Positions 8,843 to 59,101 of a DNA stretch of 59,148 bases are shown in pieces; within the stretch, counting starts at the first letter, position 1, and the number at the start of each line of letters is the position of its first letter. The DNA is taken from NCBI GenBank assembly GCA_947623725.1, contig CANQHI010000005.1, positions 1 to 59,148 of the forward strand, in the 5' to 3' direction. The DNA comes from an uncultured Clostridia bacterium (GTDB lineage Bacteria > Bacillota > Clostridia > TANB77 > CAG-508). Below the pieces are notes generated by a model. The model saw nothing but the letters and a program-made list of their open reading frames with translations, was not told the DNA's origin and did no database searches. The translations under genes were made by a program, and so were the position numbers.

Positions 8843-9039
8843 TTTTTATTAATTAAAAAGCTTAATAAAAAAACTATAAATCTTATAACTCAACTTTTTC
8901 AATGAGTTTATAAAATTTATAGTTTTTTATTTGTTATTAAATTGTAATAATTTTATTTTTCTAAAATCTTGTTAAAATATTATATTTATGATAAATTTTA
9001 TTTATATTCATTTTTATTAAGCTTTTTAATTAATTATAA
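8843..9039. promoter_or_regulatory. Putative invertible segment (switch L1) bounded by inverted arm-core-arm sites
   Basis: Site 8843-8871 is TTTTTATTAA/TTAAAAAGC/TTAATAAAAA. Site 9011-9039 is TTTTTATTAA/GCTTTTTAA/TTAATTATAA. They form a 24-nt perfect inverted repeat. The interior holds hairpin 8868-8928 and the promoter-like TTGTTA-17-TAAATT (8969-8997, + strand). Confidence 0.55.
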
Positions 9040-9065
9040 TATATTTATTTATCTATTTTTATCAA

Positions 9066-10320
9066 TTAATTATCTACTACTAGCTTAAAACTAACAACAC
9101 CATCTGTTTCATTTTTTTCTAATCTATAACCACTTGATGTCAAATCAATAGAAACCATTGGTCGAAGTGAATTTTGTGCACCAACTTCATATCCGATGTG
9201 CAGTACATACATTCGCACCTGCAACTCGATATGCATCAGTAAAATAGAATACAGCTTGTAATCCAAAGTCACAATTATCATCATATAAATGAACATAACG
9301 CCCTGCCAAGTAATAACTAACACCAAAATAATCTAAACCATCCTCTTTTTTTAATAACAAATCATAATATTTAGGATTTATAAATTCACTTTGTCTATTA
9401 AGATAATCATGTCCATAGAATGATTCTCTAAATGTTAAATTACTATTTCCCGTTTCATTATTAGTTTTATATCCATTCTCTTGTTCCCACATCAGGCATT
9501 CTTTATCACTTCCATTCTCTGTACCATCAACCTCATTATATTCATACATCCATTTTGAATCATATTCTTCCCACATTTTAGGATATTTTAGACTTGTATA
9601 TGTTGTTTTACTTCCTCCAAAATGCATCTTTCCTTCATCATTTTCAAACCAACCACTAGGATCATACTTATATTTTCTATAATCATAATTGCTTACCTTT
9701 TGTATATCACTTCTTCTTAAATTTGCTACACTTATTCCATTTTTCATTTTACCATTTTCATCATATTGTCCATAACATTGTCTACATATCTCATTTATTG
9801 CCCATACGCCATTATTATATCCTGTTGCTCCTCTTAATGTTAAGGTTTCATTTGTTGGTCTACTTGATATTAATCTTATTGTCTTTGTATATTTATTATA
9901 ATCCCAGATTCTCCAATCCAAGTCTTCTGTTGTAAATTTTTGATCTCCATTTTCTTCTGCATTTACAATTGTATTACCATCATTATCTTGTTGTGAAGTT
10001 AATCCTGATGTTATACTTTTTATTATAAATGAACTGGTATCATTTTTTTCTATTGGTTCATATCCTTCTACATAACATCCTACATAGTCATTATAATCTA
10101 TTGATATCTCATCTAACTCTTCTGCTATACTATCCAATGCTAATTGTTCTTGTTTTTCTGACTCTTGATATTCTTTTACTGCCTTTTTTGCCATTTTAAA
10201 CAATCCATTTTGCCCTAATGCTGTAGTTAAAGTTACTCCTGCTAGAATCAATAATAATATTATTGTTATTACCAAAGCTACCAATGTAATACCTTTTTCT
10301 TTATAATTTACTTTTCTCAT
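9066..10320 (-). pseudogene. Pilin-like-anchored protein, paralog 2, frame broken near 9193-9195
   Basis: Same N-terminus (MRKVNYKEKGITLVALVITIILLLILAGVTLTTALGQNGLF). Frame A stops at 9187. Frame B (9066..9326) supplies the family C-terminus ...NSLRPMVSIDLTSSGYRLEK..., which matches paralog 3. Removing one base at CAT-CGG-ATA joins them. Confidence 0.7.
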
Positions 10321-10346
10321 CCTTTGCACCTCTAACTTCATTAATT

Positions 10347-10567
10347 TTTTTATTAATCTAAAAACTTAATAAAAAAAATAATTAAACATTTATAGACCTT
10401 GTATTATAGATTCGAAGCTAGAATCCAGTTAAATTTTTTATAAAAATTTAACTAAAATTTTGGTCAATAAAGTTTAATTATTTTTTATTTTATACTTGTT
10501 TAAATATTTATGTTATGATAATATTCTTATATATAAAATTTTTATTAAGTTTTTAGATTAATAATTT
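10347..10567. promoter_or_regulatory. Putative invertible segment (switch L2)
   Basis: Site 10347-10375 is TTTTTATTAA/TCTAAAAAC/TTAATAAAAA. Site 10539-10567 is TTTTTATTAA/GTTTTTAGA/TTAATAATTT. They form a 26-nt perfect inverted repeat. Promoter-like TTGTTT-17-TAATAT with TGn lies at 10496-10524 (+). Confidence 0.55.
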
Positions 10568-10968
10568 TATGGTGCCGGATTAATTTTTATTTCTTTAGGC
10601 TTTATTTTTTTTACATTTTTAGATAATTCATATGTTTGATTCTCATTCCATCTCATAACTTTTATATTTTTATAAATATCAAGTACTTCTTGATACTTAT
10701 CGCGTTCTTCTTCCCAAACTGAATCTGGAATTTTATCAAAAGCATCAAACATTTTTTCAGCTTCTGCTAAATATATCACTTGTTCTTGTGGAGACATTTT
10801 GTCATATTTTTTTGCAAATTCTGCAAGATTATCTAGACTAGCATTTGCTTTAATAAATGTAAAAAAATCTTTAACTTTAATGCCAGCCATTTGTATTTGC
10901 ATAACAGCCATTACAATTAAAATAACTATGAAAATTAATAATAAAAATATTATTGCTAAAATAGTCAT
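10567..10968 (-). CDS. Hypothetical N-terminally anchored protein
   Basis: 133-aa ORF with a hydrophobic N-terminus. No recognisable family. Confidence 0.5.
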   Translation of the reverse strand: MTILAIIFLLLIFIVILIVMAVMQIQMAGIKVKDFFTFIKANASLDNLAEFAKKYDKMSPQEQVIYLAEAEKMFDAFDKIPDSVWEEERDKYQEVLDIYKNIKVMRWNENQTYELSKNVKKIKPKEIKINPAP

Positions 10969-11064
10969 TTATCTTTTGTTACTCCTCACATTCAAAATTA
11001 TACAAATTTATTATAGCATTAGATTAATTTAATAGCAAGTATTTTTTCTTTACTCATAAATGAC

Positions 11065-11092
11065 AGAAAAGGCACCACCTATTAGTGATGCC
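11065..11092 (-). terminator. Probable terminator after the lipoprotein gene
   Basis: Minus strand has GGCATCACT-aatag-GGTGGTGCC (with G-U pairs) followed by TTTTC. Confidence 0.45.
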
Positions 11093-11123
11093 TCTTCCTT
11101 TTTTATGCACTTTGAAAAAAATA

Positions 11124-12026
11124 TTATACTTCATTTGCTTCTTCATAATACCTTACAATTGATGTCAAATATCCGTCGTATGTTCTTCCTTCTTCCTCCA
11201 CACTATTATATATTTGGGTTGAATATAATATTCCTTCTTCTTCATCTATCCAACACTGCTTAACATGTTCATCTACAAATTGTATATCCGACATGTTATA
11301 ATCTTTAAAAACGTATAACTCTCCCGGATCAGTTCTTTCTAAAGATGAATGATATTGTAAAAATAGTCCATCATGCACATCATCATATAATAGTAAAAGG
11401 TATGCTAAATCTGTTGGATCATAATTATAGCCTAAATCTTTTATTTTTTCTGGAATTAATTCATTTCCTTGTAAATCAATCCTTTCTCCTCTTAAATATT
11501 TCACTAACTTACAATTCTGTATTATATATGTCCCTTCGCCTGGAATATATTGATAATTTTTTGAATTTATATTATTTTCATTATTTGAAAAAAAATCCAT
11601 ATCACTTGGTAAATCCAAATTATCCTTGTTATAGTAATTTCCATCAATCAATATATATCCACATAATACTTCATCAGATGCTTCTAACTCAATAGTATGT
11701 TTTTTATATATAGTTTTCTTACCATCCCATTTGCCAGACATATACAGTTCTTTTACTTCATCGTAAATTTCTTTAAAAGGAGTTTTTACTCCGCTACTTT
11801 CTCCATCTACAAATATCACTCCTTTACTACATGTTATTTTATTCAGACCGATATGTTTAACAACATCATGTTCGTCACCTTCTGACACATTTTCAAAATA
11901 TGCAGAAGCTTCTTGTGCAATGGAGACAATATCTTTTTCATTTTCAGTCTCGGATTCGCTTTGTGAAGTGCAGGCTGTTAAAATACAAGCCAAGATAATA
12001 AAACTTAGAAGTAATCTCTTTTTCAT
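11124..12026 (-). CDS. Hypothetical lipoprotein
   Basis: MKKRLLLSFIILACILTAC contains a lipobox (LTAC). The ATG at 12026 is preceded by AAAGGAGAGCAACAAA. Confidence 0.65.
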   Translation of the reverse strand: MKKRLLLSFIILACILTACTSQSESETENEKDIVSIAQEASAYFENVSEGDEHDVVKHIGLNKITCSKGVIFVDGESSGVKTPFKEIYDEVKELYMSGKWDGKKTIYKKHTIELEASDEVLCGYILIDGNYYNKDNLDLPSDMDFFSNNENNINSKNYQYIPGEGTYIIQNCKLVKYLRGERIDLQGNELIPEKIKDLGYNYDPTDLAYLLLLYDDVHDGLFLQYHSSLERTDPGELYVFKDYNMSDIQFVDEHVKQCWIDEEEGILYSTQIYNSVEEEGRTYDGYLTSIVRYYEEANEV

Positions 12027-12254
12027 TTTGTTGCTCTCCTTTTTTGTATTTATTTTTTCAATGTGCATTTTTAGATACTATCCTTAACATATCAAGAATA
12101 GCCTCTAATTTAATGTTTCAAAAAACACTATAATATATTATACTAAAAATTTACTTGTTAGTCAAATATTATGTTAATCTAATATTTTTTCTAAAAATTA
12201 AATATTTTCGAAAAATAATGAGCTAAAAATATAATTTTTAACTCATCATTTTTA

Positions 12255-14690
12255 TTATTTTACAACTATTTCTTCTTCACTTGCTGTGATTTTTGCTTTA
12301 CCTTTTATCTTTTGATCAAGCATTGCTTCAGCAATCTTATCTTCAACCATAGTTTGAATTGCCCTCTTTAATGGTCTTGCACCATAAGAATCATCAGTTC
12401 CTTTTTTAGCAATTAAGTCTTTAGCTTTTTCATCAACTTCTAATTCTATATCTTGATTTTTTAGAAGCTTCTTAACATTTTCAATTAACAAGTCTACTAT
12501 TTTTCTTATTTGCTCATCACTTAATTTATGGAATACTATTGTTTCATCAATACGATTTAAAAATTCTGGTTTAAATTCTTTCTTCAATTCTGCCATAACA
12601 TCTTTTTTAGTATTCTCATATTCTCTATTTCTGTCTGCTTCATCATTATTGCTTGTAAATCCTAGAGTTTTCTTTTCTGTAATTAATCTTGCTCCAACAT
12701 TTGATGTCATTATTACTACTGTATTCTTGAAGCTCACAGTTCTTCCTTGATTGTCCGTTAATCTTCCATCATCTAATAATTGCAAAAGCATATTCATAAC
12801 ATCAGGGTGAGCTTTTTCAATTTCATCAAATAATATTACAGAATATGGTTTTCTTCTAACTTTTTCTGTTAATTGTCCTGCTTCATCATATCCAACATAT
12901 CCTGGAGGAGCACCAATAAGTTTTGCTGTAGAATGAGATTCCATATATTCAGACATATCAATTCTAATCATTGCATCTTCAGTTCCAAATAGACTCTCTG
13001 CTAATGCTTTTGAAAGTTCTGTTTTTCCTACACCTGTTGGTCCTAAGAATAAGAACGAACCAATTGGTTTATTTGGATCTTTTAATCCCATTCTGCTTCT
13101 TTTAATTGCTTTTGCAACTGCCGAAACAGCTTCATCTTGTCCTATTACTCTCTTATGTAGATTTTCTTCTAAGTTCTTTAATTTTTCGTTTTCATTTTCT
13201 GAAACTTTTGTTACTGGAATTCCTGTCCATGATGCAACTACTTCTGCTATATCATCATATTTTAAATATAAGACTTCTTTTGAATTTTTGTCTTCCCACT
13301 CTTTTTTAGCTTTTTCATATTCTTTTTTCAATTTCTTTTGTTCATCACGAAGTTTTGCTGCCTTTTCAAAATCTTGTACTCTAATTGCATCTTCTTTTGA
13401 TTTATCTAATTTTTCTACTTCATCTTTATATTTTTTAAGTTCATCTGGCTCTGTATAATTTCTCATTTTTACTTTAGATGCAGCTTCATCCATTAAATCA
13501 ACTGCTTTATCTGGTAAAAATCTATCATTAATATATCTTGATGAAAGTTCGACTGATGCTTTAATTGCTTCATCTGTAATTTTTACATTATGATGAGCTT
13601 CATATTTATCTCTTAAACCATTTAAAATTTTGATTGTATCTTCTTCTGATGGTTCATCAACTGTAACTTTGCTAAATCTTCTCTCTAATGCTGCATCTTT
13701 TTCAATGTATTTCATATATTCTTTTAAAGTTGTTGCACCAATTAATTGAATTTCTCCCCTTGCTAAAAGTGGTTTTAAAATATTTGCAGCATCAACTGCC
13801 CCTTCTGCAGAACCTGCCCCAACTATTGTATGAATCTCGTCTATAAATAAAATTACATCTTTTGCTTTTTGTACTTCTTTTAATGCTTTCTTTATTCTTT
13901 CTTCAAAATCTCCTCTATATTTTGCACCTGCTACCATACTTGATATATCAATGCTTACAACTCTTTTACCTTTTAATAATTCTGGTACATCATTTGCAAC
14001 TATTCTCTCAGCTAAACCTTCAACAACTGCTGTTTTTCCAACTCCTGGTTCACCAAGTAAACAAGGATTATTTTTTGTTCTTCTAGATAAAATTTGTATA
14101 ACTCTTTGAATCTCATCTAATCTTCCTATAACTGGATCAAGCTTTCCTTCTTCTGCTTGTTTAGTTAAATCTGTTCCATATTGATTTAATGTTGGAGTAG
14201 AATTAAAACTACTACGAGTTTCAACTTTAGTTGTTTGATTCTTATGCTCTTCCTCTTCATTCATTATTTTAATAATGTCATTGTAAAGTTCTTGAGGATT
14301 AGCATTTAACTCTAATAAAATTCTAGCTGCAACACTATCCCCTTCTCTTAAAATTCCAACTAAAATGTGTTCTGTTCCGATATATTCACTTCCAATTCGT
14401 CTTGCTTCTATAAAGGCATTTTCAATTACCTTTTTACTTCTTGGAGTAAATCCAATTTCTTCTGGATCAACTGCTTGTTCTCCAACTCCTAAAATACCTT
14501 CAATTTCTTCTTTTATTTTATCAGAAGTTATATTTTGATTTTCTAAAACTTTGCTTGCAATTCCTGTACCTTCTTCTGCAAGTCCATACAAAATATGTTC
14601 TGACCCAATATAATCATGACCAAATTCTATAGACAAATCTTGTGCTAATTCAAGGGCTTTCTCTGCTCTTGCGGTAAATTTATAATACAT
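12255..14690 (-). CDS. clpC: ATP-dependent Clp protease ATP-binding subunit ClpC
   Basis: Clp N-repeat, two AAA+ modules (GEPGVGKTA and GPTGVGKTE) and a UVR-like linker. Last gene of the ctsR operon. Start chosen at MYYKFTARAEKAL after AAAGGAA. Confidence 0.92.
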   Translation of the reverse strand: MYYKFTARAEKALELAQDLSIEFGHDYIGSEHILYGLAEEGTGIASKVLENQNITSDKIKEEIEGILGVGEQAVDPEEIGFTPRSKKVIENAFIEARRIGSEYIGTEHILVGILREGDSVAARILLELNANPQELYNDIIKIMNEEEEHKNQTTKVETRSSFNSTPTLNQYGTDLTKQAEEGKLDPVIGRLDEIQRVIQILSRRTKNNPCLLGEPGVGKTAVVEGLAERIVANDVPELLKGKRVVSIDISSMVAGAKYRGDFEERIKKALKEVQKAKDVILFIDEIHTIVGAGSAEGAVDAANILKPLLARGEIQLIGATTLKEYMKYIEKDAALERRFSKVTVDEPSEEDTIKILNGLRDKYEAHHNVKITDEAIKASVELSSRYINDRFLPDKAVDLMDEAASKVKMRNYTEPDELKKYKDEVEKLDKSKEDAIRVQDFEKAAKLRDEQKKLKKEYEKAKKEWEDKNSKEVLYLKYDDIAEVVASWTGIPVTKVSENENEKLKNLEENLHKRVIGQDEAVSAVAKAIKRSRMGLKDPNKPIGSFLFLGPTGVGKTELSKALAESLFGTEDAMIRIDMSEYMESHSTAKLIGAPPGYVGYDEAGQLTEKVRRKPYSVILFDEIEKAHPDVMNMLLQLLDDGRLTDNQGRTVSFKNTVVIMTSNVGARLITEKKTLGFTSNNDEADRNREYENTKKDVMAELKKEFKPEFLNRIDETIVFHKLSDEQIRKIVDLLIENVKKLLKNQDIELEVDEKAKDLIAKKGTDDSYGARPLKRAIQTMVEDKIAEAMLDQKIKGKAKITASEEEIVVK

Positions 14691-14726
14691 AATTATCATT
14701 CCTTTCTTTATATAATTCATTAATTA

Positions 14727-14854
14727 AAAGATAAATATAGTTATTTTTTCATGCCTTGTTGTCGCTGAAAAGTGATAAATCACTTTTCGCTCCATTCGCG
14801 GGCTTCGCCCTTGAGCGCTACGCGGCTATTCAAAAATAACTATATTTATCTTTT
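14727..14854. repeat. GC-rich insert flanked by 23-bp perfect inverted repeats in the mcsB-clpC spacer
   Basis: 14727-14749 (aaaagataaatatagttattttt) is the reverse complement of 14832-14854. The interior is far more GC-rich than its surroundings and contains the palindrome GAAAAGTGAT-nn-ATCACTTTTC. Confidence 0.85.
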
Positions 14855-14876
14855 TAATAGCCACAAATTATAACAA

Positions 14877-15893: not shown

Positions 15894-16432
15894 TACTTAT
15901 TCATCTCCTTTATTTCATCTCTTATTTTAGCTGCATCTTCATATCTTTCTTCTTTTATAGCTTTCTCTAATTCTTTTTCTAATCTTTCTTTTTTGTTTTC
16001 ATTTTGGTCTTGTTTATTTGAATCTTCTTTCTTATTTTCTTCTACTTTTATTTTTTCTGCTTTTCCATTTGGCCCTCTACCTATATGTTTTGCTGTACCA
16101 TGTAAATTTTTAAGTAATGAATCTATTGGACTTGAAAATACATCATAACAATCGCTACATCCAAACATTCCTGTATCTATGAAATCATTATATGTCATTC
16201 CACAAGTTTTGCACTTTAGTTCATTTGTTTGTAACATTGGCAAAAACTCTGTTTCTGCATAATCATTAAAGAAATCTCCTAAAAAGCTATTGAAACTTAT
16301 AGGCATTTCTAAGTTTTCCATTCCTAATTTTTTTGCACAACTACTACAAAGTGCAATTTCCTTTTTTACTCCATTTATAATCTGAGTATATCTAATATTG
16401 GCTTCATTTTTTCCACAATTTTGACACAACAT
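15893..16432 (-). CDS. mcsA: McsA (zinc-finger and UVR-motif activator of McsB)
   Basis: N-terminal CxxC pairs (CQNCG...CSSC, CKTCG...CSDC) and a C-terminal UVR-like EERYEDAAKIRDEI. Operon position fits. Confidence 0.85.
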   Translation of the reverse strand: MLCQNCGKNEANIRYTQIINGVKKEIALCSSCAKKLGMENLEMPISFNSFLGDFFNDYAETEFLPMLQTNELKCKTCGMTYNDFIDTGMFGCSDCYDVFSSPIDSLLKNLHGTAKHIGRGPNGKAEKIKVEENKKEDSNKQDQNENKKERLEKELEKAIKEERYEDAAKIRDEIKEMNK

Positions 16433-16523
16433 TTTTTGTTCCTCCTTAAAAAATTTATAATTTTAAGCTTGCATAATATTTAATTTATATTTATTGTCTG
16501 TTATTGTCCAAAATAACTATTTT

Positions 16524-16967: not shown

Positions 16968-17040
16968 ATATTTTTCTTTGATATATTCGATATTAAATGG
17001 TTTTAGGTATTTAATATTGAAATAATCATTCTCTCCTTTC

Positions 17041-21230: not shown

Positions 21231-22304
21231 TTATTTTATTACAAAATTATTCTTTTGTACTTTTATTGTAACTTTATATGACTTTATAACTCCATATTTA
21301 CTAGAAACAACTCCAAAATTGTTTAGTATGCTTGAAAATATACTAATTAGTAATGATTTATTAGATGTTACATATTCTTTTAAATCTGTAAAATCTGTAA
21401 AATCATAAGTATCTTCAATTACCATATTTACTTTCCAAGTATTATCTAAGTTTTTTTCAATTTCTATACTTGTTGGAGAACCATGTATAGCAAATAATAA
21501 ATCTTTATTATTAAATTCAATTATACAATCTTCATTATTTTCACTATTATCCTTAAATTTATCTTTTTCACTACAATATTTTTTTATAAGTTCTTTTATT
21601 TTATTATCAAATTCTTCACTTTCTAGTATATCTTCAATAACTTCTTTATCATTAATCAATAAATCTTGTGGTTGCTTTCCAAATAAAGATAATGAATGCG
21701 ATAATAATTTAGCTGAAAGTTTCATATTTGCTAATAATCCTCCAACAACCACAACTTGCCAAAATGTATATTGCATTGCATAAAAAACGGTATAAGCAAT
21801 AGGAGAGTTTTTCTTAGTTAAATCAAATATAAAACTCATACTTTTTATAAAGTTCTCTGCTACATCTTTATCTACTTCTTCCCAATTAGTTTTTTTAGCT
21901 TCTTTTAATAATTCATTAAATTTTTGTGTATAATTAAACAATTTGTATATTTCATTTAGTGAAAACGACATCGTCTCTATTATATTTTTTGAAAAAGTTT
22001 TGATATTTTTTATATCATTAGAAACTTTTTCTTTTACATCATTTAAAGCTTCATAGTTCATCATGTTTAGATACGTTAATGCAATATATTTTTGAGCTAA
22101 AACATATTTTTTCTTTTTACTAAGAAAAAACTTATGATTTTTCCATGCTATTCTAGTACATAAATACAATTCTTTATTCCATATTATTCTAGGTGATTTA
22201 GCAAATCCCAATAATTCATATAAATTATCTAGGCATCCTCTTCCAAACATTTCATATTTATAATTATATGGTCTATTACATAATAAACATCTTTTTTCTT
22301 CCAT
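21231..22304 (-). CDS. Hypothetical protein
   Basis: 357-aa ORF with an N-terminal CLLCNRP...GRGC motif. No family recognised. Confidence 0.5.
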   Translation of the reverse strand: MEEKRCLLCNRPYNYKYEMFGRGCLDNLYELLGFAKSPRIIWNKELYLCTRIAWKNHKFFLSKKKKYVLAQKYIALTYLNMMNYEALNDVKEKVSNDIKNIKTFSKNIIETMSFSLNEIYKLFNYTQKFNELLKEAKKTNWEEVDKDVAENFIKSMSFIFDLTKKNSPIAYTVFYAMQYTFWQVVVVGGLLANMKLSAKLLSHSLSLFGKQPQDLLINDKEVIEDILESEEFDNKIKELIKKYCSEKDKFKDNSENNEDCIIEFNNKDLLFAIHGSPTSIEIEKNLDNTWKVNMVIEDTYDFTDFTDLKEYVTSNKSLLISIFSSILNNFGVVSSKYGVIKSYKVTIKVQKNNFVIK

Positions 22305-24259: not shown

Positions 24260-25189
24260 TTAAGCTAAAATTTTTGCTTCAATATTTCTAATTTTATATT
24301 TTCCATTTTCTTCAATAAAATCATATAAGCTTTTATCTAAGCTGTCACTGTTTTGTTTTAAATCAGTTGTATAATAAAAATTAATTTTGTCTATTTTTAC
24401 GCCATTTGTAACTAAAGCTTTAAAAGTTTCTGCCATGTGTCTTTCATCTTCACATATAAAAACAAGTTGTGGTATCGAAATGAAATCTGAATCTCCAGGA
24501 TTAAAATTATCATAAAAATCTTTCCATAAATTCATTCTTTCGACTAATCTTTTTTCCCAATTTTCATTTCTTCTAACTACTTCATATACAAAACTTATTT
24601 TTCTATTATTTGCAACTAAATCAATACTTAATGTAGGTTTAAACTGTTTACTAAGAGTTTTTGCTTGAATTACTGGTTTTAGTTTATAATCTGAAAAAGT
24701 TTTTACTTTTCTCATATATGCAATAACTAATTGATTTCCAGCAAGTTTTTTCTTTATCATTTCAACAGGTTTTGCATTATCACTTGGTTGCCATTTGCAT
24801 TCTACCTCTCTTGATGTAAGCAAATATTTTCCCATCTTCTCCATGCAGTAAACTCTATATATTCCACTTCCTTCTGGTGATGTAAAATAATATCTTGTAA
24901 GTATTTTGCTTCTAATTAATTGGTCTAATTTATTGTTTAATTTATCTTGAGTTTTTATATCTGCTTTTTGAAGTTGTAATAATTGAAACATTTGTCTTGA
25001 TGTTAAAAATTCAAATTTATTTATTAATTCTAAAATTTGAAAATGTATTTCATTTATATGTCCTACATTTATCTTCTGTATAATCTGATTCATTGAGACA
25101 TAACCGTCTTTTCCATCAAATACTTTTATCTCCCCTTCTCTCATTCTAAAAGGTGAGACTGTTGTTTTAATTTCATTATCTGCTAACAT
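24260..25189 (-). CDS. Replication-relaxation family protein (plasmid/ICE-type)
   Basis: 309-aa ORF whose N-terminal winged-helix-like region and overall pattern resemble the replication-relaxation family. ATG follows AGGAGGAAAAA. Confidence 0.55.
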   Translation of the reverse strand: MLADNEIKTTVSPFRMREGEIKVFDGKDGYVSMNQIIQKINVGHINEIHFQILELINKFEFLTSRQMFQLLQLQKADIKTQDKLNNKLDQLIRSKILTRYYFTSPEGSGIYRVYCMEKMGKYLLTSREVECKWQPSDNAKPVEMIKKKLAGNQLVIAYMRKVKTFSDYKLKPVIQAKTLSKQFKPTLSIDLVANNRKISFVYEVVRRNENWEKRLVERMNLWKDFYDNFNPGDSDFISIPQLVFICEDERHMAETFKALVTNGVKIDKINFYYTTDLKQNSDSLDKSLYDFIEENGKYKIRNIEAKILA

Positions 25190-34909: not shown

Positions 34910-36202
34910 CTAATTATATTTAATTAATTTGAATTTCACAGTTTCATCTTCTTCAACTTTTTCTAAATCGTATCCACTAGATATTAAGTTGATACTAACT
35001 ATTGGGCGAAGTGCACTTCCCTGACACCAAACCTGATTCCAAGTCTCAATCATAGACCTACCTCCTATATCTTCCGAAGTGATAAAACCATTACTCCCCT
35101 CTACCGTACATATACCAAACTCACCATGATCCACAAATAAATGAGTATATCGACACGAAAGCCAGTAAGTCATATAATGCTTGTCAAATAAGATATCCTT
35201 ATATTTCTCATCTTTGAATTCTTCGTTCGAATATTTATGCCCGATACTACTCGATTGTTTTAGTTCCACATTATCACAACTTTTTTGGGCTGTATCAACT
35301 TTCATATTATCATTTTCTAGTTCCCATATCAAGCCTTCTTTATCTTCTCCCACTCCTTCTCCATCTTTATATTCATAAGACCACTCTTCATCTTTTTCCC
35401 ACATTACTGGATAATAACAATTACTTTCATATTTATGAGTACTTCCATAAGATATATCTCCACTTGAATCATATTGCCACCCATTCTCTCTATTTCCAAG
35501 CTTATGCTTATACTGGGTAAAATCATAAGTACTTACATTTTGTATATCACTTCTTTTTAAATTTGCTACTGATATTCCTCTTTTCATTTGATTATTTTCA
35601 TCATATTGTCCATAACATTGTCTACATATTTCATTTACTGCCCACACTCCGTTATTATATCCTGTTGCTCCTTTTAATGTTAATGTTGCCTCTGTTGGTT
35701 TATCTGATATTAATCTTATTGTTTTTGTATATTTATCATAATCCCAGATTCTCCATTCTAATTCTTCTGTTGTAAATTTTTGATCTCCATTTGTTTCTAC
35801 ACCATCAATTGTATTACCATTTTCACCTTGATTTGAAGTCACTCCTGATGTTTCACTTTTTATTATAAATTCACTTCCTGTTGTTTTTCCTGTTGGCTCG
35901 TATCCTTTTACATATGCTCCTACATAATCATTATAATCTATTGATATTTTTTCCATCTCTTCTGCTATACTATCCAATGCTGATTGTTCTTGTTTTTCTG
36001 CCTCTTGATATTCATTTACTGCTTTTTTTGCCATTCTAAACAATCCATTTTCACTTAATGCTGTATTTATTGTTATTCCTGCTAATATTAATAGTATTAT
36101 TATGGTTATTACTAGTGCTACTAATGTGATTCCTTTTTCTTTATGATTTATTTTTCTCCTATTGTGCATTTTATTTTCTTTTACATTATCCTTATTTTTC
36201 AT
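34910..36202 (-). CDS. Pilin-like-anchored protein, paralog 3 (intact counterpart of paralog 2)
   Basis: ...HKEKGITLVALVITIIILLILAGITINTALSENGLFRMAKKAV... with C-terminal YWLSCRY...ALRPIVSINL. ATG follows AAAGGAGAACTAAC. Confidence 0.75.
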   Translation of the reverse strand: MKNKDNVKENKMHNRRKINHKEKGITLVALVITIIILLILAGITINTALSENGLFRMAKKAVNEYQEAEKQEQSALDSIAEEMEKISIDYNDYVGAYVKGYEPTGKTTGSEFIIKSETSGVTSNQGENGNTIDGVETNGDQKFTTEELEWRIWDYDKYTKTIRLISDKPTEATLTLKGATGYNNGVWAVNEICRQCYGQYDENNQMKRGISVANLKRSDIQNVSTYDFTQYKHKLGNRENGWQYDSSGDISYGSTHKYESNCYYPVMWEKDEEWSYEYKDGEGVGEDKEGLIWELENDNMKVDTAQKSCDNVELKQSSSIGHKYSNEEFKDEKYKDILFDKHYMTYWLSCRYTHLFVDHGEFGICTVEGSNGFITSEDIGGRSMIETWNQVWCQGSALRPIVSINLISSGYDLEKVEEDETVKFKLIKYN

Positions 36203-36317: not shown

Positions 36318-36346
36318 ATTTTATCAATACTAAAGTATTAAGTCAA
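36318..36346 (-). promoter_or_regulatory. Promoter-like element between switch L3 and gene 3
   Basis: The minus strand has TTGACT, a 17-nt spacer and TAAAAT with an upstream TGn. The same block is conserved at 58850-58878. Confidence 0.45.
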
Positions 36347-36372: not shown

Positions 36373-36569
36373 TTTTTATTAAGTAATAAACTTAATAAAA
36401 AAGCTATAAATTTTATAATCCATATATTTCAACGAATTAATAAGATTCATAACTTTTATTTTTTACTAATTTGTAATAATTTTCTTTATCTATATTATTG
36501 CTTAACTGCTTATATTTATTATATAAATTTATTTATACTATTTTTATTAAGTTTATTACTTAATTATTT
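36373..36569. promoter_or_regulatory. Putative invertible segment (switch L3)
   Basis: Site 36373-36401 is TTTTTATTAA/GTAATAAAC/TTAATAAAAA. Site 36541-36569 is TTTTTATTAA/GTTTATTAC/TTAATTATTT. They form a 24-nt perfect inverted repeat. Promoter-like TTGCTT-18-TATAAA lies at 36498-36527 (+). Confidence 0.55.
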
Positions 36570-36786
36570 TTTTCTGTAATTTTTGTTACTTAAAATTAAA
36601 TTCTAATCTTGTTTTCAGTAAAAAAATCAAATTATACTTTAAAACTTAAAAATTATATCAAATTGATATAATTATTTTTTTTATTTAACATTTATCTGTA
36701 TATTTTTTCTTAATTTGGAAATATTAACTATAAAATTGTTTAGAAGTACTTACATCTTCTAAAAAAGAAAGGATTTTAGTTTTATT

Positions 36787-36999
36787 ATGGGTATTGAAAA
36801 ACATATTCAAGTTACAGGTAAATCAACTGTTTCATGGAAGGACGCAATTGTTCAAACTGTTGAGGAGGTATCAAAAACAATTAATTTTGTAACATCAATT
36901 AAGATTCTTGAACAACGTGCAAAAATAACCGTAAATAAAATAACTGAATACTATGTTGATTTAGATATTACATTTATGGTTGAACAAAAAAATTCATAA
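36787..36999 (+). CDS. Dodecin-family protein
   Basis: 70 aa. KHIQVTGKSTVSWKDAIVQTVEEVSKT...ITEYYVDLDITF matches the dodecin pattern. Confidence 0.7.
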   Translation: MGIEKHIQVTGKSTVSWKDAIVQTVEEVSKTINFVTSIKILEQRAKITVNKITEYYVDLDITFMVEQKNS

Positions 37000-37040
37000 T
37001 TTATTTTACAAAACATTATGAGAAAGGAGATAAATATACT

Positions 37041-37484
37041 ATGAATCCCACTGATACATCAAAAGAGTATGGAGAATATGTAAAAAAGAAAGCTCCAAAT
37101 TCACCTATTTTAAAAGATTGTTTCAATGCTTTCTGGGTTGGTGGATTAATATGCTCTATTGGTCAATTAATATTTTTTTATTGCAAATTTAAAGGTTTAG
37201 ATCAGACAGCATCATCTACAGTAGTTTCAATTTGTTTAATCCTTATATCTGTAATTCTAACTTCTTTAAATATATTTAATAGAATAGGAAAATTTGCAGG
37301 TGCTGGTTCACTTATCCCTATTACTGGATTTGCTAATTCAATTGTTTCACCTTCTATCGAATATAAATCTGAAGGTTATGTTATGGGTGTTGGCGCAAAA
37401 ATGTTTACAGTAGCAGGACCTGTTTTAGTTTATGGAATTTCTGCATCAGTAATTATTGGAATTATTGCTTGTTTATTCATATAA
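37041..37484 (+). CDS. spoVAC: Stage V sporulation protein AC
   Basis: YVKKKAPNSPILKDCFNAFWVGGLICSIGQ...ITGFANS. Operon context fits. Confidence 0.9.
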   Translation: MNPTDTSKEYGEYVKKKAPNSPILKDCFNAFWVGGLICSIGQLIFFYCKFKGLDQTASSTVVSICLILISVILTSLNIFNRIGKFAGAGSLIPITGFANSIVSPSIEYKSEGYVMGVGAKMFTVAGPVLVYGISASVIIGIIACLFI

Positions 37485-37587
37485 CCTTTAACTTAAATTA
37501 ATAATAAAAAATATTTTTTATATACCAAACAAGGTTATAGGCTTGCCTTTTAAAAACCTAAATATATTTACGAGGAATGATTTTTTA

Positions 37588-38592
37588 ATGAAAAAAATAG
37601 GAAAACAAACTTTACAATTAGATAATAAACCTAGCATTTTAAATACTGCTGCTATCGTTGGTCCTAAAGAACTTGATGGACCACTTGCAAAATATTTTGA
37701 CAAATGTGTTGAAGATGAATTTTGGGGTGAAAGTTCTTGGGAAAAAGCAGAAAGTAAATTTATAAAAGAAACCATTAATACAGTTTTAGGAAAAGCTAAT
37801 ATATCTAGTACAGATGTTGATTATGTTTTTGCAGGAGATTTATTAAATCAATGTATTTCATCATGCTTCGGACTTAGAGATAGCAATATCCCTTTTTTTG
37901 GACTTTTTGGTGCTTGTTCAACTTTTGTTGAAGGATTGTGCTTAGGTTCTGTCTTTATGGATTCAGGTGCATGTAATCATATACTTTGTGCTACTTCAAG
38001 TCACTTCTGCAGTGCAGAAAAGCAATTTAGATTTCCACTTGAATTGGGAAATCAAAGAACTCCTACTAGTCAATGGACTGTTACTGGCTCTGGAGCTGTT
38101 ATTCTTGGTAAAAATAATGTTGGTCCTTATATTACTCATATTACACCAGGAAAAATTGTTGATTTAGGAATAAAAGATGCAAATAACATGGGTGCAGCAA
38201 TGGCTCCTGCTGCTTTATCCACACTTTGCACACATTTTGAGGATACAGGAAGAACTCCTGATTATTATGATGCAATTATCACTGGAGATTTAGGTCATTT
38301 AGGAAAAGATATTTTAATTGATATTGCTAAAAATAAAGGATATGACATTGCAAAAAATTATAATGATTGTGGAGTATTAATTTTTGATAAAAAGAAACAA
38401 GATACTCATTCTGGTGGAAGCGGATGTGCTTGCATAGCTACAGTATTTTCAGGATATTTATATAAATTAATGACTGAAAATAAGATTAAAAAATTGTTAT
38501 TGATTGCAACTGGAGCCTTAACTAATTCTACTACAGCTCAACAAGGTGAATCTATTCCTGGTATAGCTCATGCAGTTTCAATAGAAATGTAG
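37588..38592 (+). CDS. spoVAD: Stage V sporulation protein AD
   Basis: Thiolase-like fold protein, MKKIGKQTLQLDNKPSILNTAAIVGPKE... Sits between spoVAC and spoVAE. Confidence 0.9.
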   Translation: MKKIGKQTLQLDNKPSILNTAAIVGPKELDGPLAKYFDKCVEDEFWGESSWEKAESKFIKETINTVLGKANISSTDVDYVFAGDLLNQCISSCFGLRDSNIPFFGLFGACSTFVEGLCLGSVFMDSGACNHILCATSSHFCSAEKQFRFPLELGNQRTPTSQWTVTGSGAVILGKNNVGPYITHITPGKIVDLGIKDANNMGAAMAPAALSTLCTHFEDTGRTPDYYDAIITGDLGHLGKDILIDIAKNKGYDIAKNYNDCGVLIFDKKKQDTHSGGSGCACIATVFSGYLYKLMTENKIKKLLLIATGALTNSTTAQQGESIPGIAHAVSIEM

Positions 38593-38688
38593 TTTGCTTA
38601 TTGTTAAAAGAAAGGAGAAATATATAAATTTTTAAATAATTTGATAAAATTCTGCTAATTTATTTACAAATTTATATTGTAATTTAAA

Positions 38689-39075
38689 ATGGATTATTTT
38701 CAAAGTATCAATTGGATGACAATGCTTAATTGTTTTATAGTTGGTGGAGTACTATGTGTAATCGGACAAATTTTAATAGATAAAACAAAACTAACTCCAG
38801 CTAGAATATTAGTTCTATATGTTACTGTAGGTACTATTTTAGGTGGAATTGGAATTTATCAAAAATTAATTGATTTCGCAGGTTGTGGTGCAACAGTTCC
38901 ATTAACTGGTTTTGGTGCAAATCTTGCTAAAGGTGCTCTTGAAGCAGTAAAAGAACAAGGATTATTAGGAGCATTCATTGGTGGAGTCAAAGCTTCTGCT
39001 GGTGGAATTGCCGCTGCAGTATTCTTTGGTTACCTTGCTTCTCTTATTGCTAAGCCAAAAATAAAGAAACAATAA
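38689..39075 (+). CDS. spoVAE: Stage V sporulation protein AE (AEB-type)
   Basis: FIVGGVLCVIGQILID...VPLTGFGANLAKG. The start is uncertain because no SD lies directly upstream. Confidence 0.8.
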   Translation: MDYFQSINWMTMLNCFIVGGVLCVIGQILIDKTKLTPARILVLYVTVGTILGGIGIYQKLIDFAGCGATVPLTGFGANLAKGALEAVKEQGLLGAFIGGVKASAGGIAAAVFFGYLASLIAKPKIKKQ

Positions 39076-51223: not shown

Positions 51224-51231
51224 TTTTCCCT

Positions 51232-51909: not shown

Positions 51910-51984
51910 TTTTATAATCCTTTCTAAGATCTCATTAAAAGATTTAACTTAAATTTTATCAGATAAATATGTTTATTCTGTGAA

Positions 51985-53094: not shown

Positions 53095-53287
53095 AAAATT
53101 CCTCTTAATAAAAATAAAACTATTTAATTTATACCATTTTTTTCAGGAAAATACAAGTATTTTTGTTCTATTAGCCAAATATTTTTTCCATATTTTAACT
53201 TTTAAATTTTAAATTTATTATGTTAAAATTTCAAATTGCAAAAGAGCCAAATTTATAAATTTTAAAACAAAAAAATAAAAATATAAA

Positions 53288-53354
53288 GCTTTGCAGTGGT
53301 GTGCAGCAACCAAGCGTAAGCGCGAATGGAGCACTGAAATGAAATTTCAATTTC
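53288..53354 (+). repeat. Partial second copy of the GC-rich element core
   Basis: AAGCGTAAGCGCGAATGGAGC followed by a hairpin. It matches the minus-strand core GGGCGAAGCCCGCGAATGGAGC plus hairpin of element 14727-14854. Confidence 0.6.
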
Positions 53355-53545
53355 TATAAAATTTTAACTTATTATAATTACTATTTTAATGTTGTAACAA
53401 ATAAAAAAATATGATAATATAAAAAAAACTAATGAAAAATTTTTAGAATTAATTTCTATATTATTTTTCTTAATTTGTATTCAATTACAAAATAAGAAAG
53501 GAGAAGTCGTATAATAACTTATTTGCATTATACGAGGAATAACTT

Positions 53546-55012: not shown

Positions 55013-55060
55013 TCATATTTTTACAGTTAAAAAGCTAAAATGAAAGTAAACACGGTTAGA

Positions 55061-55102
55061 AAATAAATGTAAACACACAAAAATGTTTACATTTATTTTT
55101 TT
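55061..55102 (+). terminator. Terminator after the amylase gene
   Basis: AAATAAATGTAAACA-loop-TGTTTACATTTATTT followed by a T-run. Confidence 0.7.
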
Positions 55103-55197
55103 GCACATAATTTTCGAAAATATTTTTATTTGTTTGCGAAATGTCGCAAATATTTAAAACTCTCTTTTGGTATAATTTTGACGGAAAGAGGTGTAAA

Positions 55198-55440
55198 ATG
55201 GAATTATGTTATGCTATACAAAATAGAATAATAGATTTATGTGATGAACAAGACATATCACTAAATAAATTAGCAACGAAATCCGGACTTCCTTTTTCAA
55301 CAATTTTTAGTATATTTTACGGAAAAAGTAAAAGCCCTAGACTTTCTACGATATTACATATATGTGAAGGTTTTAGCATTGACTTATCCGAATTTTTCAA
55401 TGATCCGATATTTGATGATGTTGAATATGAAGATGAATAA
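55198..55440 (+). CDS. XRE-family helix-turn-helix protein
   Basis: IIDLCDEQDISLNKLATKSGLPFSTI is an HTH. ATG follows AAAGAGGTGTAAA. Confidence 0.7.
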   Translation: MELCYAIQNRIIDLCDEQDISLNKLATKSGLPFSTIFSIFYGKSKSPRLSTILHICEGFSIDLSEFFNDPIFDDVEYEDE

Positions 55441-55474
55441 AAAACTCTACCTAAAAATAGTAGATAGAGTTTTT

Positions 55475-56176
55475 TTATTGCAAAACATTCAGTGTGTCAC
55501 TTTCATTAATTCCATTTAAATTATAATACGTATCTGGTATATTACCAACTATGACTGCTTCTGCTAATAACACCTGTGTTTGAACATCTTCATCAATATC
55601 TTTATATGGAGAAAGCATTGTAATATGACAAGTTATATCTATATAAATTCTATGAAGCGTTTGATTAATACCTGCATCTGAAAATTCTGATTTTATATTT
55701 GTTTCTATGTTTCCTTCTGTAACCAAAATCAATCTAATTTTAGGTCCTTTTCCAATAAAAAATTTATTACCTGTAATTGTACCTAAGCTTATATCAAAAT
55801 TAGAATTTCCTTGTTTACTTAATTCTTCTTGTACCTGAAGAGCAATACTTGAGCAAAGTTGATTTATCGTTATTACATCTAATTTTATTAATTTTACATT
55901 TCCCTCTTCATCTTTTTCTACAGAACATAAATCTTGATAGGATATTCCTTCTGTTTTTTCTTTTGTTGCATTGTTAGAAATTGTAGCTGCTGCCGACCTA
56001 GCTAGAACTCTTGATTGCCTTTCTATAAATGGAGTAATTCCATCTATTATTTTTACTGCTGAAAAGTATGCAATGATTATAACTATCATTAAAATTATCA
56101 AGAATTTTTTATGTCTATCTATTTTTTTCGTACTAACTATTCTCGGTATTCGAAATCTTGAATAAATTTTATCCAT
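55475..56176 (-). CDS. yunB: Sporulation protein YunB
   Basis: N-terminal TM, then ...GTITGNKFFIGKGPKIRL...IETNIKSEFSDAGINQTLHRIYI... Confidence 0.8.
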   Translation of the reverse strand: MDKIYSRFRIPRIVSTKKIDRHKKFLIILMIVIIIAYFSAVKIIDGITPFIERQSRVLARSAAATISNNATKEKTEGISYQDLCSVEKDEEGNVKLIKLDVITINQLCSSIALQVQEELSKQGNSNFDISLGTITGNKFFIGKGPKIRLILVTEGNIETNIKSEFSDAGINQTLHRIYIDITCHITMLSPYKDIDEDVQTQVLLAEAVIVGNIPDTYYNLNGINESDTLNVLQ

Positions 56177-56177
56177 C

Positions 56178-57704
56178 TTACCCCATATATTTTTCTATAA
56201 ACAATTGTTGGCCTGGCATTATTTGGTCACTTTTCAACTCATTTGTATCAATTATACTTTGGACTGTACTATTAAACTCTTTAGCAATTTTCCACAAACT
56301 ATCATTTTTTCTTACTTGATATATAACCATATTGTAGTCGTCTTGATTTTGATTTTCTATCTCTTGTATATCATTAATTAATCTTAATTGTACATCATTT
56401 GAAGATATTATATTAAAGTTAATGTCTAATTTAATATTAATTTCGCCTCCCGGCAATATATTAAAATCTTGCAAACTTACATCTGTTTTTAATTTTATAT
56501 TTGCATCTCTATTTAAACCATTGCAACTGATTTTATTTTCAAAAGGAATACTTAAATTTTTCGTCTGAATTCCTGTATTTCCATTTGCTGAACAAATAAA
56601 CATTAAATTAATATTTCCACTAACCCAAACTTCATTATCATTTACTTTTATTTCTTCAACAAGAACATTAACATCTACATCATGAACTTTTTCATCTGCT
56701 ATACTTAATAGTTCTTTTTGATTTACATTTAAAGTTCCATTAAACATTGATTTATTCTGTATCATCTGTATATTATTTTGTTTAAAACTTAAATTCGTGC
56801 TAGGACTATATAAATCCTCAATAACATTAATTTCTTTATTATTATATGCAGTCGCATTTATACCAATTTCCACTTCTACATATATTGAATGTTCTGTTGC
56901 ACTATTAGGCTTTATTACCATATTTTTTATTTCAAAATCATATTCACAAGGATCATTTTCATTAATGTCTTGCATATCAATAAATCCTATAATAGGAAAT
57001 TTTGCATTAGCTGTATTAATTCTTCCATCTTCTGTTAAATATAATATTTTCAAACGCAAATCCGCTTTAGCTAAGATTTTATTATAACTAATTTTTATAT
57101 TCCTATTTCCTATATCACTGTTTACCTTTAAAATTTCTGCTAAATTATCATTCGCATCGATTTTTATAGTTTCTTTTACTGTTGACCTAGTTTGACCAAT
57201 TCCTAAAATAGTGTTAACTTGAATTGTCTTTTCTAATTTCTGTATATCTTTTAAATCAACATTATTAACATATTCAACATCATTACTTGCTAATACTTGT
57301 ATATCAAAATTTAGCATTGCTTTTAAATTTATTTTTCTCTCATTTATAATTCTGCTCTCTATTGAAAGTAATTTAACATCTATATTTACATTCATATCAG
57401 ATGTGATATCTTCTATATTAAAACTTTGTGAAAAATCTAAAACATGGTTTATACTTCTTACTCCTTTAGTCTTTCCATCATCTCCAATGTACATAACATA
57501 TACATTTACTGCACCATCAATTCTAATTTTTCCATCCATTACTTCTTTTTTATAAACATTTACTATTCCGCTTGTTCCAATAAGTTCTAGTATGTCCGGT
57601 TTTATGTCAGGGACAATGCTATCTCCTTCAATTGTTATTGATTCATTTTGATTTGAAATAACTTGATTGACAGCTAGTTTATTTTTTTCTAACTTTATAG
57701 CCAT
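56178..57704 (-). CDS. DUF3794-domain plus C-terminal LysM protein (SipL-like spore-coat morphogenetic protein)
   Basis: N-terminal SIVPDIKPDILELI... (DUF3794-type). C-terminal YQVRKNDSLWKIAKEFNSTVQSIIDTN is a LysM domain. Confidence 0.7.
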   Translation of the reverse strand: MAIKLEKNKLAVNQVISNQNESITIEGDSIVPDIKPDILELIGTSGIVNVYKKEVMDGKIRIDGAVNVYVMYIGDDGKTKGVRSINHVLDFSQSFNIEDITSDMNVNIDVKLLSIESRIINERKINLKAMLNFDIQVLASNDVEYVNNVDLKDIQKLEKTIQVNTILGIGQTRSTVKETIKIDANDNLAEILKVNSDIGNRNIKISYNKILAKADLRLKILYLTEDGRINTANAKFPIIGFIDMQDINENDPCEYDFEIKNMVIKPNSATEHSIYVEVEIGINATAYNNKEINVIEDLYSPSTNLSFKQNNIQMIQNKSMFNGTLNVNQKELLSIADEKVHDVDVNVLVEEIKVNDNEVWVSGNINLMFICSANGNTGIQTKNLSIPFENKISCNGLNRDANIKLKTDVSLQDFNILPGGEINIKLDINFNIISSNDVQLRLINDIQEIENQNQDDYNMVIYQVRKNDSLWKIAKEFNSTVQSIIDTNELKSDQIMPGQQLFIEKYMG

Positions 57705-57799
57705 AGCTTACCTCCTTAATATTTACTTAAATATATGCGAGGTAAATTAAAATATGATTGAATTATTATATATTTCTATTTTTTATAATTTGGTAAAAT

Positions 57800-58792
57800 T
57801 TAATCTTTGATTGCAGATTTTGGAATCGAAATTACAGGTCGTACACCTTCCTTATTATGGTCAAACGTAGCATTATCGAAAGTCCCTATTATACAACGTA
57901 TTGTACACACATATTTATAATTATTATCATTATTATTATCATTACCTCCACGTGCTGCCAACCAATAACCCCACACATCGTTCGTATCACCTAGAAAAAA
58001 AACCTTGTTACCCAAAATAGCTTCATTTCTTACATATACGCTAAATTCTTCACTTTCCTCACCTATTTTATACTTAACCTGCTGAGAATCGTCTTTTATT
58101 ATTGTTAACTTATCTTCTACATTACTTCCATATCTTTCATTATACGCACTTTCTAGCTGTTCTGCAGTTGGACCTCCTGCTGCTGTTACTTCTACCTCTA
58201 TCCCTTTTTCCTTTAATGCCTTTTTAACTCCATTTGCAATGCTTGTCCAATTACTCGCTCCAGTCAAATAATTTATTAATTGCTCTCTATTACCACTTAT
58301 AACATTCCCATACACTACAATTCCACTATGCATTATACCTTTTACATATGGTATTGCATTTTCTTCTAAATAGTCTGAATATATAAAATATACTTTCCCT
58401 TCACTTTCATCTGTATAATAATATTGCCAACCATGTTCAAGAACTTTACCGTTTACTATAACATCACCTAAGTTTACCGTTTGACTATCGTCTGGTTTGT
58501 TGTCTACGTTTTTTGGTATTTCTATTTTTTCTTCTGATGGTGGTACCGGTGGCTCTGGTGTTTTATCTCCATCTACTATTTTGTCTATCTCTTTTTCTAC
58601 TTCTCCTAATTTTTCTGCCTCATCTGATTCTGATTCCTTATAATTTTCTCCTGCATATTTTGCCCTTTGAAATAGTCCATTTTGTCCTAGTGCTGTTGTT
58701 AATGTTACTCCTGCTAATATTAATAGTATTATTATTGTTATTACTAATGCTATTAATGTTATTCCTTTTTCTTTATAATTTTCTTTTCCCAT
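57800..58792 (-). CDS. Pilin-like-anchored protein, paralog 4
   Basis: MGKENYKEKGITLIALVITIIILLILAGVTLTTALGQNGLFQRAK... with C-terminal YWLAARG...EGVRPVISIP. ATG follows AAGGGGGAAAATCAAAAG. Confidence 0.75.
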   Translation of the reverse strand: MGKENYKEKGITLIALVITIIILLILAGVTLTTALGQNGLFQRAKYAGENYKESESDEAEKLGEVEKEIDKIVDGDKTPEPPVPPSEEKIEIPKNVDNKPDDSQTVNLGDVIVNGKVLEHGWQYYYTDESEGKVYFIYSDYLEENAIPYVKGIMHSGIVVYGNVISGNREQLINYLTGASNWTSIANGVKKALKEKGIEVEVTAAGGPTAEQLESAYNERYGSNVEDKLTIIKDDSQQVKYKIGEESEEFSVYVRNEAILGNKVFFLGDTNDVWGYWLAARGGNDNNNDNNYKYVCTIRCIIGTFDNATFDHNKEGVRPVISIPKSAIKD

Positions 58793-58849
58793 CTTTTGAT
58801 TTTCCCCCTTATTATTACTTACTTTTTTCTTATATTTATTAATAAATTA

Positions 58850-58878
58850 ATTTTATTATTTATAAAGTATTAAGTCAA
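58850..58878 (-). promoter_or_regulatory. Promoter-like element between switch L4 and gene 4
   Basis: The minus strand has TTGACT, a 17-nt spacer and TAAAAT. It is homologous to 36318-36346. Confidence 0.45.
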
Positions 58879-58904
58879 TGCCAAGCAATATTTTACTTCT
58901 GTTT

Positions 58905-59101
58905 ATTTTATTAAGTAGAAAGATTAATAAAAAAGTATAAAATCTTGCAATTCATTTATTCCAATGATTATGCAAAATTTTATACTTTACTTTTTTACGA
59001 TTTTGTAATAATTTTTATCTTTATTTTTTTCTTATAATTGACTATATTATGCTATATTTTATATATATAATTTTTTTATTAATCTTTCTAATTAATAATA
59101 T
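58905..59101. promoter_or_regulatory. Putative invertible segment (switch L4)
   Basis: Site 58905-58933 is ATTTTATTAA/GTAGAAAGA/TTAATAAAAA. Site 59073-59101 is TTTTTATTAA/TCTTTCTAA/TTAATAATAT. 25 of 26 positions are inverted-repeat matches. Promoter-like TTGACT-18-TATATA lies at 59038-59067 (+). Confidence 0.5.

Follow-up and report, generated by a model that had tools for sequence, protein, structure and literature searches.

The window analysed here, the whole 59,148-nucleotide (nt) contig CANQHI010000005.1 of an uncultured Clostridia bacterium (GCA_947623725.1), uses the standard genetic code, has a guanine-plus-cytosine (GC) content of 26% and carries spo0A, spoVA and ctsR-mcsB-clpC, which mark it as part of a spore-forming Clostridia genome. 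It encodes four minus-strand genes of one putative surface-protein family, each lying to the left of a pair of short sites and each specifying a product that begins ...KEKGITLVALVITIIILLILAGVT; these are the only four such genes in the window:

7353 to 8792, minus strand: family gene 1, N-terminus ...KECGITLVALVITIIILLILTGVT
9187 to 10320, minus strand: family gene 2, with 1517 homologues
34910 to 36202, minus strand: family gene 3, with an orthologue in the closest relative
57800 to 58792, minus strand: family gene 4

Between 26 and 170 nt upstream of these genes lie four cassettes of 196-221 bp (8843-9039, 10347-10567, 36373-36569 and 58905-59101, here L1 to L4), each with a palindromic site at one end and the inverted partner of that site at the other. 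Every family gene in the window, and no other gene, carries such a cassette (4/4), and these segments of about 196 bp are likely to be invertible promoter switches, one before each member of the family. What is new is the lineage and the gene family, the switch type itself being of an already known kind. The eight sites, in which a 9-nt core separates two arms, are as follows:

8843 to 8871: L1 gene-proximal site, TTTTTATTAA-T-TAAAAAG-C-TTAATAAAAA, full dyad arms, core TTAAAAAGC
9011 to 9039: L1 distal site, TTTTTATTAA-GCTTTTTAA-TTAATTATAA, outer arm degenerate, core GCTTTTTAA, repeat I2
10347 to 10375: L2 gene-proximal site, core TCTAAAAAC
10539 to 10567: L2 distal site, core GTTTTTAGA, repeat I7 (26 nt, 100% complementary)
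36373 to 36401: L3 gene-proximal site, core GTAATAAAC
36541 to 36569: L3 distal site, core GTTTATTAC, repeat I3
58905 to 58933: L4 gene-proximal site, ATTTTATTAA-GTAGAAAGA-TTAATAAAAA, core GTAGAAAGA, one mismatch in the outer arm
59073 to 59101: L4 distal site, core TCTTTCTAA, repeat I6, not fully complementary (core position 1 differs)

With up to three mismatches allowed, the pattern TTTTTATTAA-N9-TTAATAAAAA matched the window eight times against 0.79 expected, a count reached by none of 100 shuffles. Seven of the matches were switch sites, and the remaining one, at 24352, had three mismatches and is at chance level. The L3 partner at 36541-36569 (TTTTTATTAA GTTTATTAC TTAATTATTT) was too degenerate for the pattern and was recovered by other means, including the listing of inverted repeats, in which the partner pairs correspond to I2 (L1), I7 (L2), I3 (L3) and I6 (L4); all eight sites are present. 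An initial reading of the window from its sequence only had reported four different cores, and the four are indeed distinct, with 7-bp overlaps TAAAAAG, CTAAAAA, TAATAAA and TAGAAAG. The same reading held that each core is matched by its reverse complement at the partner, which is correct for L1 to L3 and incorrect for L4, where core position 1 is G versus T. The gene-proximal outer arm, described as essentially invariant, is unchanged everywhere except in L4 (ATTTTATTAA), and the distal outer arm keeps not only the TTAAT first noted but also a further conserved A, giving approximately TTAATxAxxx across 96 relatives. The absence of scattered copies of the motif was borne out, the four full-arm sites being exactly those upstream of the window's four family genes.

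The same arms were found in 94 switches from 15 related genomes. In a scan of species-representative genomes, the full site was concentrated in rabbit-gut, Hadza-gut and other gut metagenome-assembled genomes (MAGs) that carry the label 'uncultured Clostridia bacterium', full-site matches outside those MAGs being single chance occurrences, and a second scan recovered the full site from human-gut metagenome contigs. At least 18 switch copies were present in one draft genome. The closest relative, Lapin-005 bin108 (GCA_947588945.1), shares 93.5% identity over 8.6 kb of synteny around L3, and the L3 core is identical at its orthologous locus (L001). Orthology of L1, L2 and L4 with loci of this relative was not established, so these comparisons yielded no clean orthologous compensatory change.

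Two further arrangements were seen among the relatives. A second switch lineage, found in two MAGs, one from Hadza gut and one labelled Bacteroidaceae (L023, L035, L040, L044, L048, L050, L063, L066, L075, L093, L102 and L117), has a 155-bp spacing, cores of the form ATxxxxxAT that are especially diverse, and a distal inner arm TTTTAATTAA. In a human-gut contig (L169, OMFM01003929.1), a full site at 1576-1604 and the family's 5' leader lie directly between asd and tuf (EF-Tu), with no invertible segment and no family gene; tuf is followed, at the contig end, by a tyrosine recombinase gene that is truncated. This arrangement could be an assembly chimera or a recombination relic.

Comparison of about 100 related cassettes resolved the site into a 7-bp spacer flanked by 11-bp arms, TTTTTATTAAG-N7-CTTAATAAAAA. 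Position 1 of the 9-nt core is G in 66/96 sites and position 9 is C in 81/96, indicating that the arms are really 11 bp long and that the variable centre is 7 bp. Of the 94 unique switches from the 15 genomes, 34 had partner cores that differed at position 1 and two had a difference at position 9, whereas none had a mismatch at positions 2-8 (0/94). The search that produced this count demanded near-complementary cores and was repeated with partners defined by their arms alone, whereupon 79 of 80 non-redundant switches had a perfectly complementary 7-nt centre, compared with 7.0 under random re-pairing, and 31 distinct 7-mers were represented. An exact complement of the core lay 80-240 nt away for 96 of the 112 gene-proximal sites with enough sequence beyond them. 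Such matched centres are consistent with strand exchange that requires identity of the overlap. The proposal of the sequence-only reading that crossover needs core identity thus gained support, with mismatches found only at position 1 and in the distal outer arm, as expected if the overlap must match; its view of the sites as functional pairs rather than decaying transposon ends agrees both with the perfect centres and with the inverted, not direct, arrangement of the cores. The sole switch of the 80 whose arm-defined partner has a foreign core, GTTATAAAC versus GTTTTTAGA, is at L136 (2372-2400); this odd pair may be a two-locus hybrid or a chimera, the contig coverage being 1.6x.

The cassette interior was compared by aligning 81 related cassettes with the gene to the right. 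This alignment revealed a promoter, TTGATT-17-TGcTATATT, that is at least 90% conserved, lies on the strand opposite the gene, adjoins the distal site and faces away from the gene; the putative window copies occupy the same position as in the aligned relatives. At the other end of the cassette, a long hairpin followed by a U-run adjoins the proximal site on the gene-sense strand and merges into the T-rich arm of that site, with folding energies of -16.5 to -22.9 kcal/mol and z-scores of -4.6 to -6.9 (-3.4 for the long-range stem of L2). The corresponding elements of the window are:

8969 to 8997, plus strand: L1 promoter, TTGTTA-17-TAAATT with TG at -15/-14, facing away from gene 1, which would read as OFF
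10496 to 10524, plus strand: L2 promoter, TTGTTT-17-TAATAT with TG, facing away from gene 2
about 36498 to 36527, plus strand: L3 promoter-like element, TTGCTT-16/18-TATA(T/A)A, facing away from gene 3 and towards dodecin and spoVA genes
59050 to 59058, plus strand: L4 extended -10 element, TGcTATATT, with a weak -35, facing away from gene 4
8868 to 8928, minus strand: L1 terminator-like hairpin and U-run, repeat I13, -22.5 kcal/mol, z -6.4, abutting the proximal site
10367 to 10492, minus strand: L2 long-range stem with 24-nt arms and inner hairpins, repeat I11, -17.2 kcal/mol, z -3.4, ending in a U-run by the proximal site
36399 to 36457, minus strand: L3 terminator-like hairpin, strand-specific (-16.5 kcal/mol sense versus -6.1 antisense)
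58932 to 58988, minus strand: L4 terminator-like hairpin and U-run, repeat I22, -22.9 kcal/mol, z -6.9

A consensus terminator scan was of no use at this base composition, as the AT-rich hairpins fail its G+C rule, and Rfam gave no matching family. In L2 just 26 nt separate the site from the start codon, leaving no room for another promoter. The outward promoter, together with the hairpin guarding the gene, leads to the sequenced state being read as OFF. Terminator logic is also part of the Clostridioides difficile cwpV switch.

These features suggest a mechanism in which inversion of each cassette of about 196 bp would produce ON/OFF phase variation of one gene; the occurrence of inversion in the source organism, the enzyme class and the consequences for expression are proposed here from sequence features. 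The enzyme, most likely a tyrosine recombinase with its gene elsewhere in the genome, would recognise the conserved arms of both inverted core-type sites and exchange strands across the 7-bp overlap, for which identity of the two partners would be required. In the sequenced orientation the internal promoter would fire away from the gene while the hairpin and U-run block read-through, keeping the gene OFF. Inversion would bring the promoter up against the proximal site, so that transcripts would cross this site into a leader of 26-60 nt with a ribosome-binding site and the gene would be ON. The overlap, not being contacted by the enzyme, would be able to drift between paralogous loci, and its two copies within a locus would stay matched.

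In its present orientation the L3 promoter faces a dodecin gene and spoVAC-spoVAD-spoVAE on the plus strand (36785-39075), and the L3 switch could also affect these neighbours.

Inversion itself is the weak point of this reading, orientations having been judged from assembled contigs, and several observations weigh against it. More than 110 scored copies from the window, the MAGs and human-gut samples were all OFF-like; one human-gut locus ('KMNTKKKNARG') had a single orientation in at least 14 independent samples, as did three other loci (P0014, P0078 and P0104) in 4-6 samples each, and an ON-specific pattern found nothing in metagenome contigs. A promoter-like element, TTGACT-17-TAAAAT, lies on the minus strand between the proximal site and genes 3 and 4 (36318-36346 and 58850-58878) and is absent from L1 and L2, so that genes 3 and 4 may not be fully switch-dependent. 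Simple promoter scans were uninformative at 26% GC, the counts found being equal to those expected. Neither the 59-kb window nor the neighbourhood of any switch, across about 1.4 Mb of related loci, encodes a tyrosine or serine recombinase. Finally, the only contrast between ON and OFF at the same locus rests on 8-10 nt at two contig ends (L194 and L195).

That contrast concerns L047, the only flipped copy, in which the promoter abuts the full site in the exact geometry predicted for ON and precedes an operon whose first gene encodes a small membrane protein and whose next is a family gene. Two other samples, L194 and L195, have the same gene (99% identity) behind that site, but with a T-run junction of the OFF type. 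In a large phase-variable family, most copies at each of many loci would be expected to be silent.

No switch was found at the P0093, P0128 and P0138 loci. In the P0128 contigs (L196-L202), which have a fixed TTGACA-17-TAAAAT promoter and no switch, the gene for a small membrane protein is identical across samples and is a homologue of the one that opens the L047 ON operon; the genes after it vary by sample, encoding either 285 or 908/1024 amino acids.

The recombinase was sought in all loci with catalytic-motif patterns and with jackhmmer, seeded with an Xer-type gene from a Rickettsiales chance locus. Besides the seed, two tyrosine recombinases were recovered, one in a prophage-like gene cluster and one truncated at a contig end, both being integrases of prophage type. 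The window open reading frame at 21231-22304 was rejected as a candidate, its weak Phage_int_SAM_6 match being below the cut-off and recombinase catalytic motifs being absent. Unlinked master recombinases acting on locus-specific inverted repeats have been described in such systems. The form of the site is informative about the enzyme: two inverted arms flank an asymmetric 7-bp overlap that is identical between partners, and from established mechanism an odd-length 11-7-11 dyad whose centre is free between loci and identical between partners points to a tyrosine-recombinase core site rather than to a serine invertase. Inversion by a serine enzyme of the Hin/Gin or Mpi type is accordingly a quite unlikely alternative, although a master serine invertase acting on many promoters has been described in Bacteroides fragilis. 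A serine invertase cleaves an even-length dyad about a 2-bp crossover at its centre, whereas the centre here is a single base and the spacing is odd (7 or 9); the partner-matched stretch of 7-8 nt is, from established mechanism, typical of tyrosine-recombinase overlaps.

It is very improbable that the cassettes are fixed, non-inverting modules, with sites serving as operators for a dimeric regulator or with repeats pairing as a long-range RNA stem. Like operators, the sites are individually dyads, nearly every public copy has the same orientation, and the strand specificity of the hairpin would fit an RNA-level function inside the cassette. Yet an operator gives no reason for exactly complementary spacers across 31 variants, and an RNA stem would tolerate G-U pairs, of which there are none at positions 2-8, and would not need each site to be palindromic by itself. 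The promoter faces away from the gene, so there is no known single transcript over both sites, and the flipped L047 and the lack of an Rfam match also speak against a fixed module. Chance insertion of miniature transposable elements, resembling miniature inverted-repeat transposable elements, upstream of the family genes has hardly any likelihood. The cassettes are short, AT-rich and multi-copy with terminal inverted repeats, as such elements are, but the variable 9-mers are inverted and not direct, and so are not target-site duplications; copies are found only upstream of one gene family at fixed distance and polarity, and the window has no orphan copies.

Within the preferred reading of the cassettes as invertible promoters, it was also asked why the cores differ. 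The sequence-only reading had proposed that they are kept private to each locus, which would mean that selection keeps the overlaps different so that one recombinase flips each switch independently, with no deletion or inversion between loci, as a natural counterpart of heterospecific lox sites. The four window overlaps are all different, several relatives are similarly diverse (10 distinct cores in 12 loci, 5 in 5 and 6 in 8), and in the window the overlaps diverge somewhat more (0.38 per site) than the cassette interior does (0.26), a comparison of only six locus pairs. Against this, the overlap is identical in 146 of 434 within-genome locus pairs: GGTAAAAAC is used by 14 of the 18 loci of Lapin-015 bin75 and GGAAAAAAC by 5 of the 14 loci of Lapin-033 bin63, adjacent tandem switches often share an overlap (L054, L061, L090, L036 and L002, the L002 pair being 1.5 kb apart), and the window overlaps of L1 and L4 are one position apart. 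Mean overlap divergence, 0.184 per site, is not above the 0.217 of the interior, and the two are correlated (Spearman rho 0.51, p 4e-30). Since overlap divergence tracks interior divergence, the differences look like drift between old paralogues rather than enforced privacy; that part of the sequence-only reading was not upheld, and selection for private cores is unlikely. The different cores of the window would be a by-product of drift that, as a side effect, would still lower crossing-over between loci. A related and similarly doubtful idea is that the variety is exploited, one master recombinase reading the invariant 11-bp arms at dozens of promoters and the 7-bp overlaps serving as a natural address code that would prevent recombination among most of the switches. 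If this were true, lineages with many identical overlaps would pay in frequent inter-locus rearrangements, and the lineage would be a natural experiment in heterospecific recombination sites.

The family regulated by these switches is large, with 1517 relatives of which none is named and none has a Pfam domain, and the window proteins had no Pfam or NCBIfam match above the curated cut-offs. Their N-terminus (KG|ITLVA) is prepilin-like but for an Ala in place of Glu at position 5, and it scores 18.3-18.5 bits against PF07963, below the cut-off of 21.2. Type IV pilins and pseudopilins have a class III signal that ends in G and is followed by FTLxE, with Glu at position 5. The N-termini (...KEKGITLVALVITII...) have no obvious lipoprotein signal, as judged without an explicit search for a lipobox or for P35-family homology. 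As read from their sequences, the proteins are probably hypervariable, membrane-anchored or secreted, and built on a pilin-like N-terminal helix. A confident AlphaFold2 model of the gene 2 protein (9187-10320; mean predicted local distance difference test score 86, predicted template modelling score 0.78) has an N-terminal helix and a globular part. Searches of the PDB with the sequences and folds of the regulated proteins, including Foldseek at E <= 0.001 for the gene 2 model, found no match, and the globular domain of this modelled protein may have an undescribed fold. Gene 3 (34910-36202) is 69-75% identical to its counterpart at 10001-11089 of L001, compared with 93.5% across the flanking 8.6 kb, which indicates fast divergence or replacement by a paralogue. 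An exact look-up of two window proteins in public assemblies gave no match, and a literature search with the site sequence returned nothing relevant.

Elsewhere in the window, the mcsB-clpC gap contains a 28-nt inverted repeat (14721-14748 and 14832-14859) whose arms are 93% complementary and 83 nt apart.

The closest known system is the mpl family of Mycoplasma penetrans. Its report describes P35-family genes that each have their own small invertible promoter, with inverted repeats that all differ among 30 genes, and a single unlinked tyrosine recombinase, MYPE2900, thought to act on all mpl promoters (PMC3047005). Both systems involve a multigene family of surface proteins with an invertible promoter for each gene, and the window repeats likewise differ (4/4), whereas relatives often share cores. 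The host here is in contrast a spore-forming member of the Clostridia, and the proteins belong to another family than the P35 lipoproteins, with a pilin-like N-terminus and no obvious lipoprotein signal; the sites are 29-bp dyads with invariant 11-bp arms, unlike the 12-bp repeats of mpl, which were compared by their description. Clostridioides difficile offers a parallel within the Clostridia, where the tyrosine recombinase RecV is described as a master enzyme encoded elsewhere that acts on cwpV, flgB and other switches whose repeats differ between loci (PMC5903667). Short invertible segments upstream of surface or motility genes are common to both, but the roughly seven switches of C. difficile are unrelated to one another, as are most of their repeats, whereas here one stereotyped cassette precedes every family member and the arms are conserved across species.

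The arrangement of arm, spacer and arm, with an asymmetric spacer that sets polarity and is identical between partners, also resembles lox and FRT sites. In Cre/loxP and FLP/FRT recombination, as with the variants lox511 and lox2272, partners need identical spacers, and a difference in spacer insulates one site from another. Those lox variants are products of engineering with a 13-8-13 layout, whereas the spacer variety here is natural and apparently due to drift, and insulation between loci is predicted only. The invertons for surface polysaccharides in B. fragilis likewise provide many invertible promoters per genome, and one global unlinked invertase, Mpi, has been described there as acting on many invertible promoters for alternative surface structures. 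Mpi is a serine recombinase whose repeats share one consensus, whereas the odd spacing and the matched centre of 7-8 nt argue for a tyrosine enzyme here. The fimS element of Escherichia coli (FimB/FimE) is a further likeness, as a promoter-bearing invertible element of a few hundred bp that is acted on by tyrosine recombinases and controls a surface appendage gene; it differs in that only one locus is involved, with 9-bp repeats and with the recombinase genes next to it, and in having no multigene family and no embedded terminator module.

Most of what is known about phase-variable promoters comes from Bacteroides, enterobacteria, mycoplasmas and C. difficile. The present cassettes place a stereotyped putative switch before a fast-evolving family of unknown fold in uncultured, low-GC, spore-forming Clostridia of rabbit and human gut. 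Their invariant arms, combined with a 7-bp centre that varies freely and is nevertheless matched between partners, provide good natural data on how an overlap evolves under a requirement for identity. The site is an easy search pattern for annotating switches in metagenomes, and the switches may account for assembly breaks at these loci. The gene family they precede is a candidate for interaction with the host or with phage, and one that would be mostly silent in the population.

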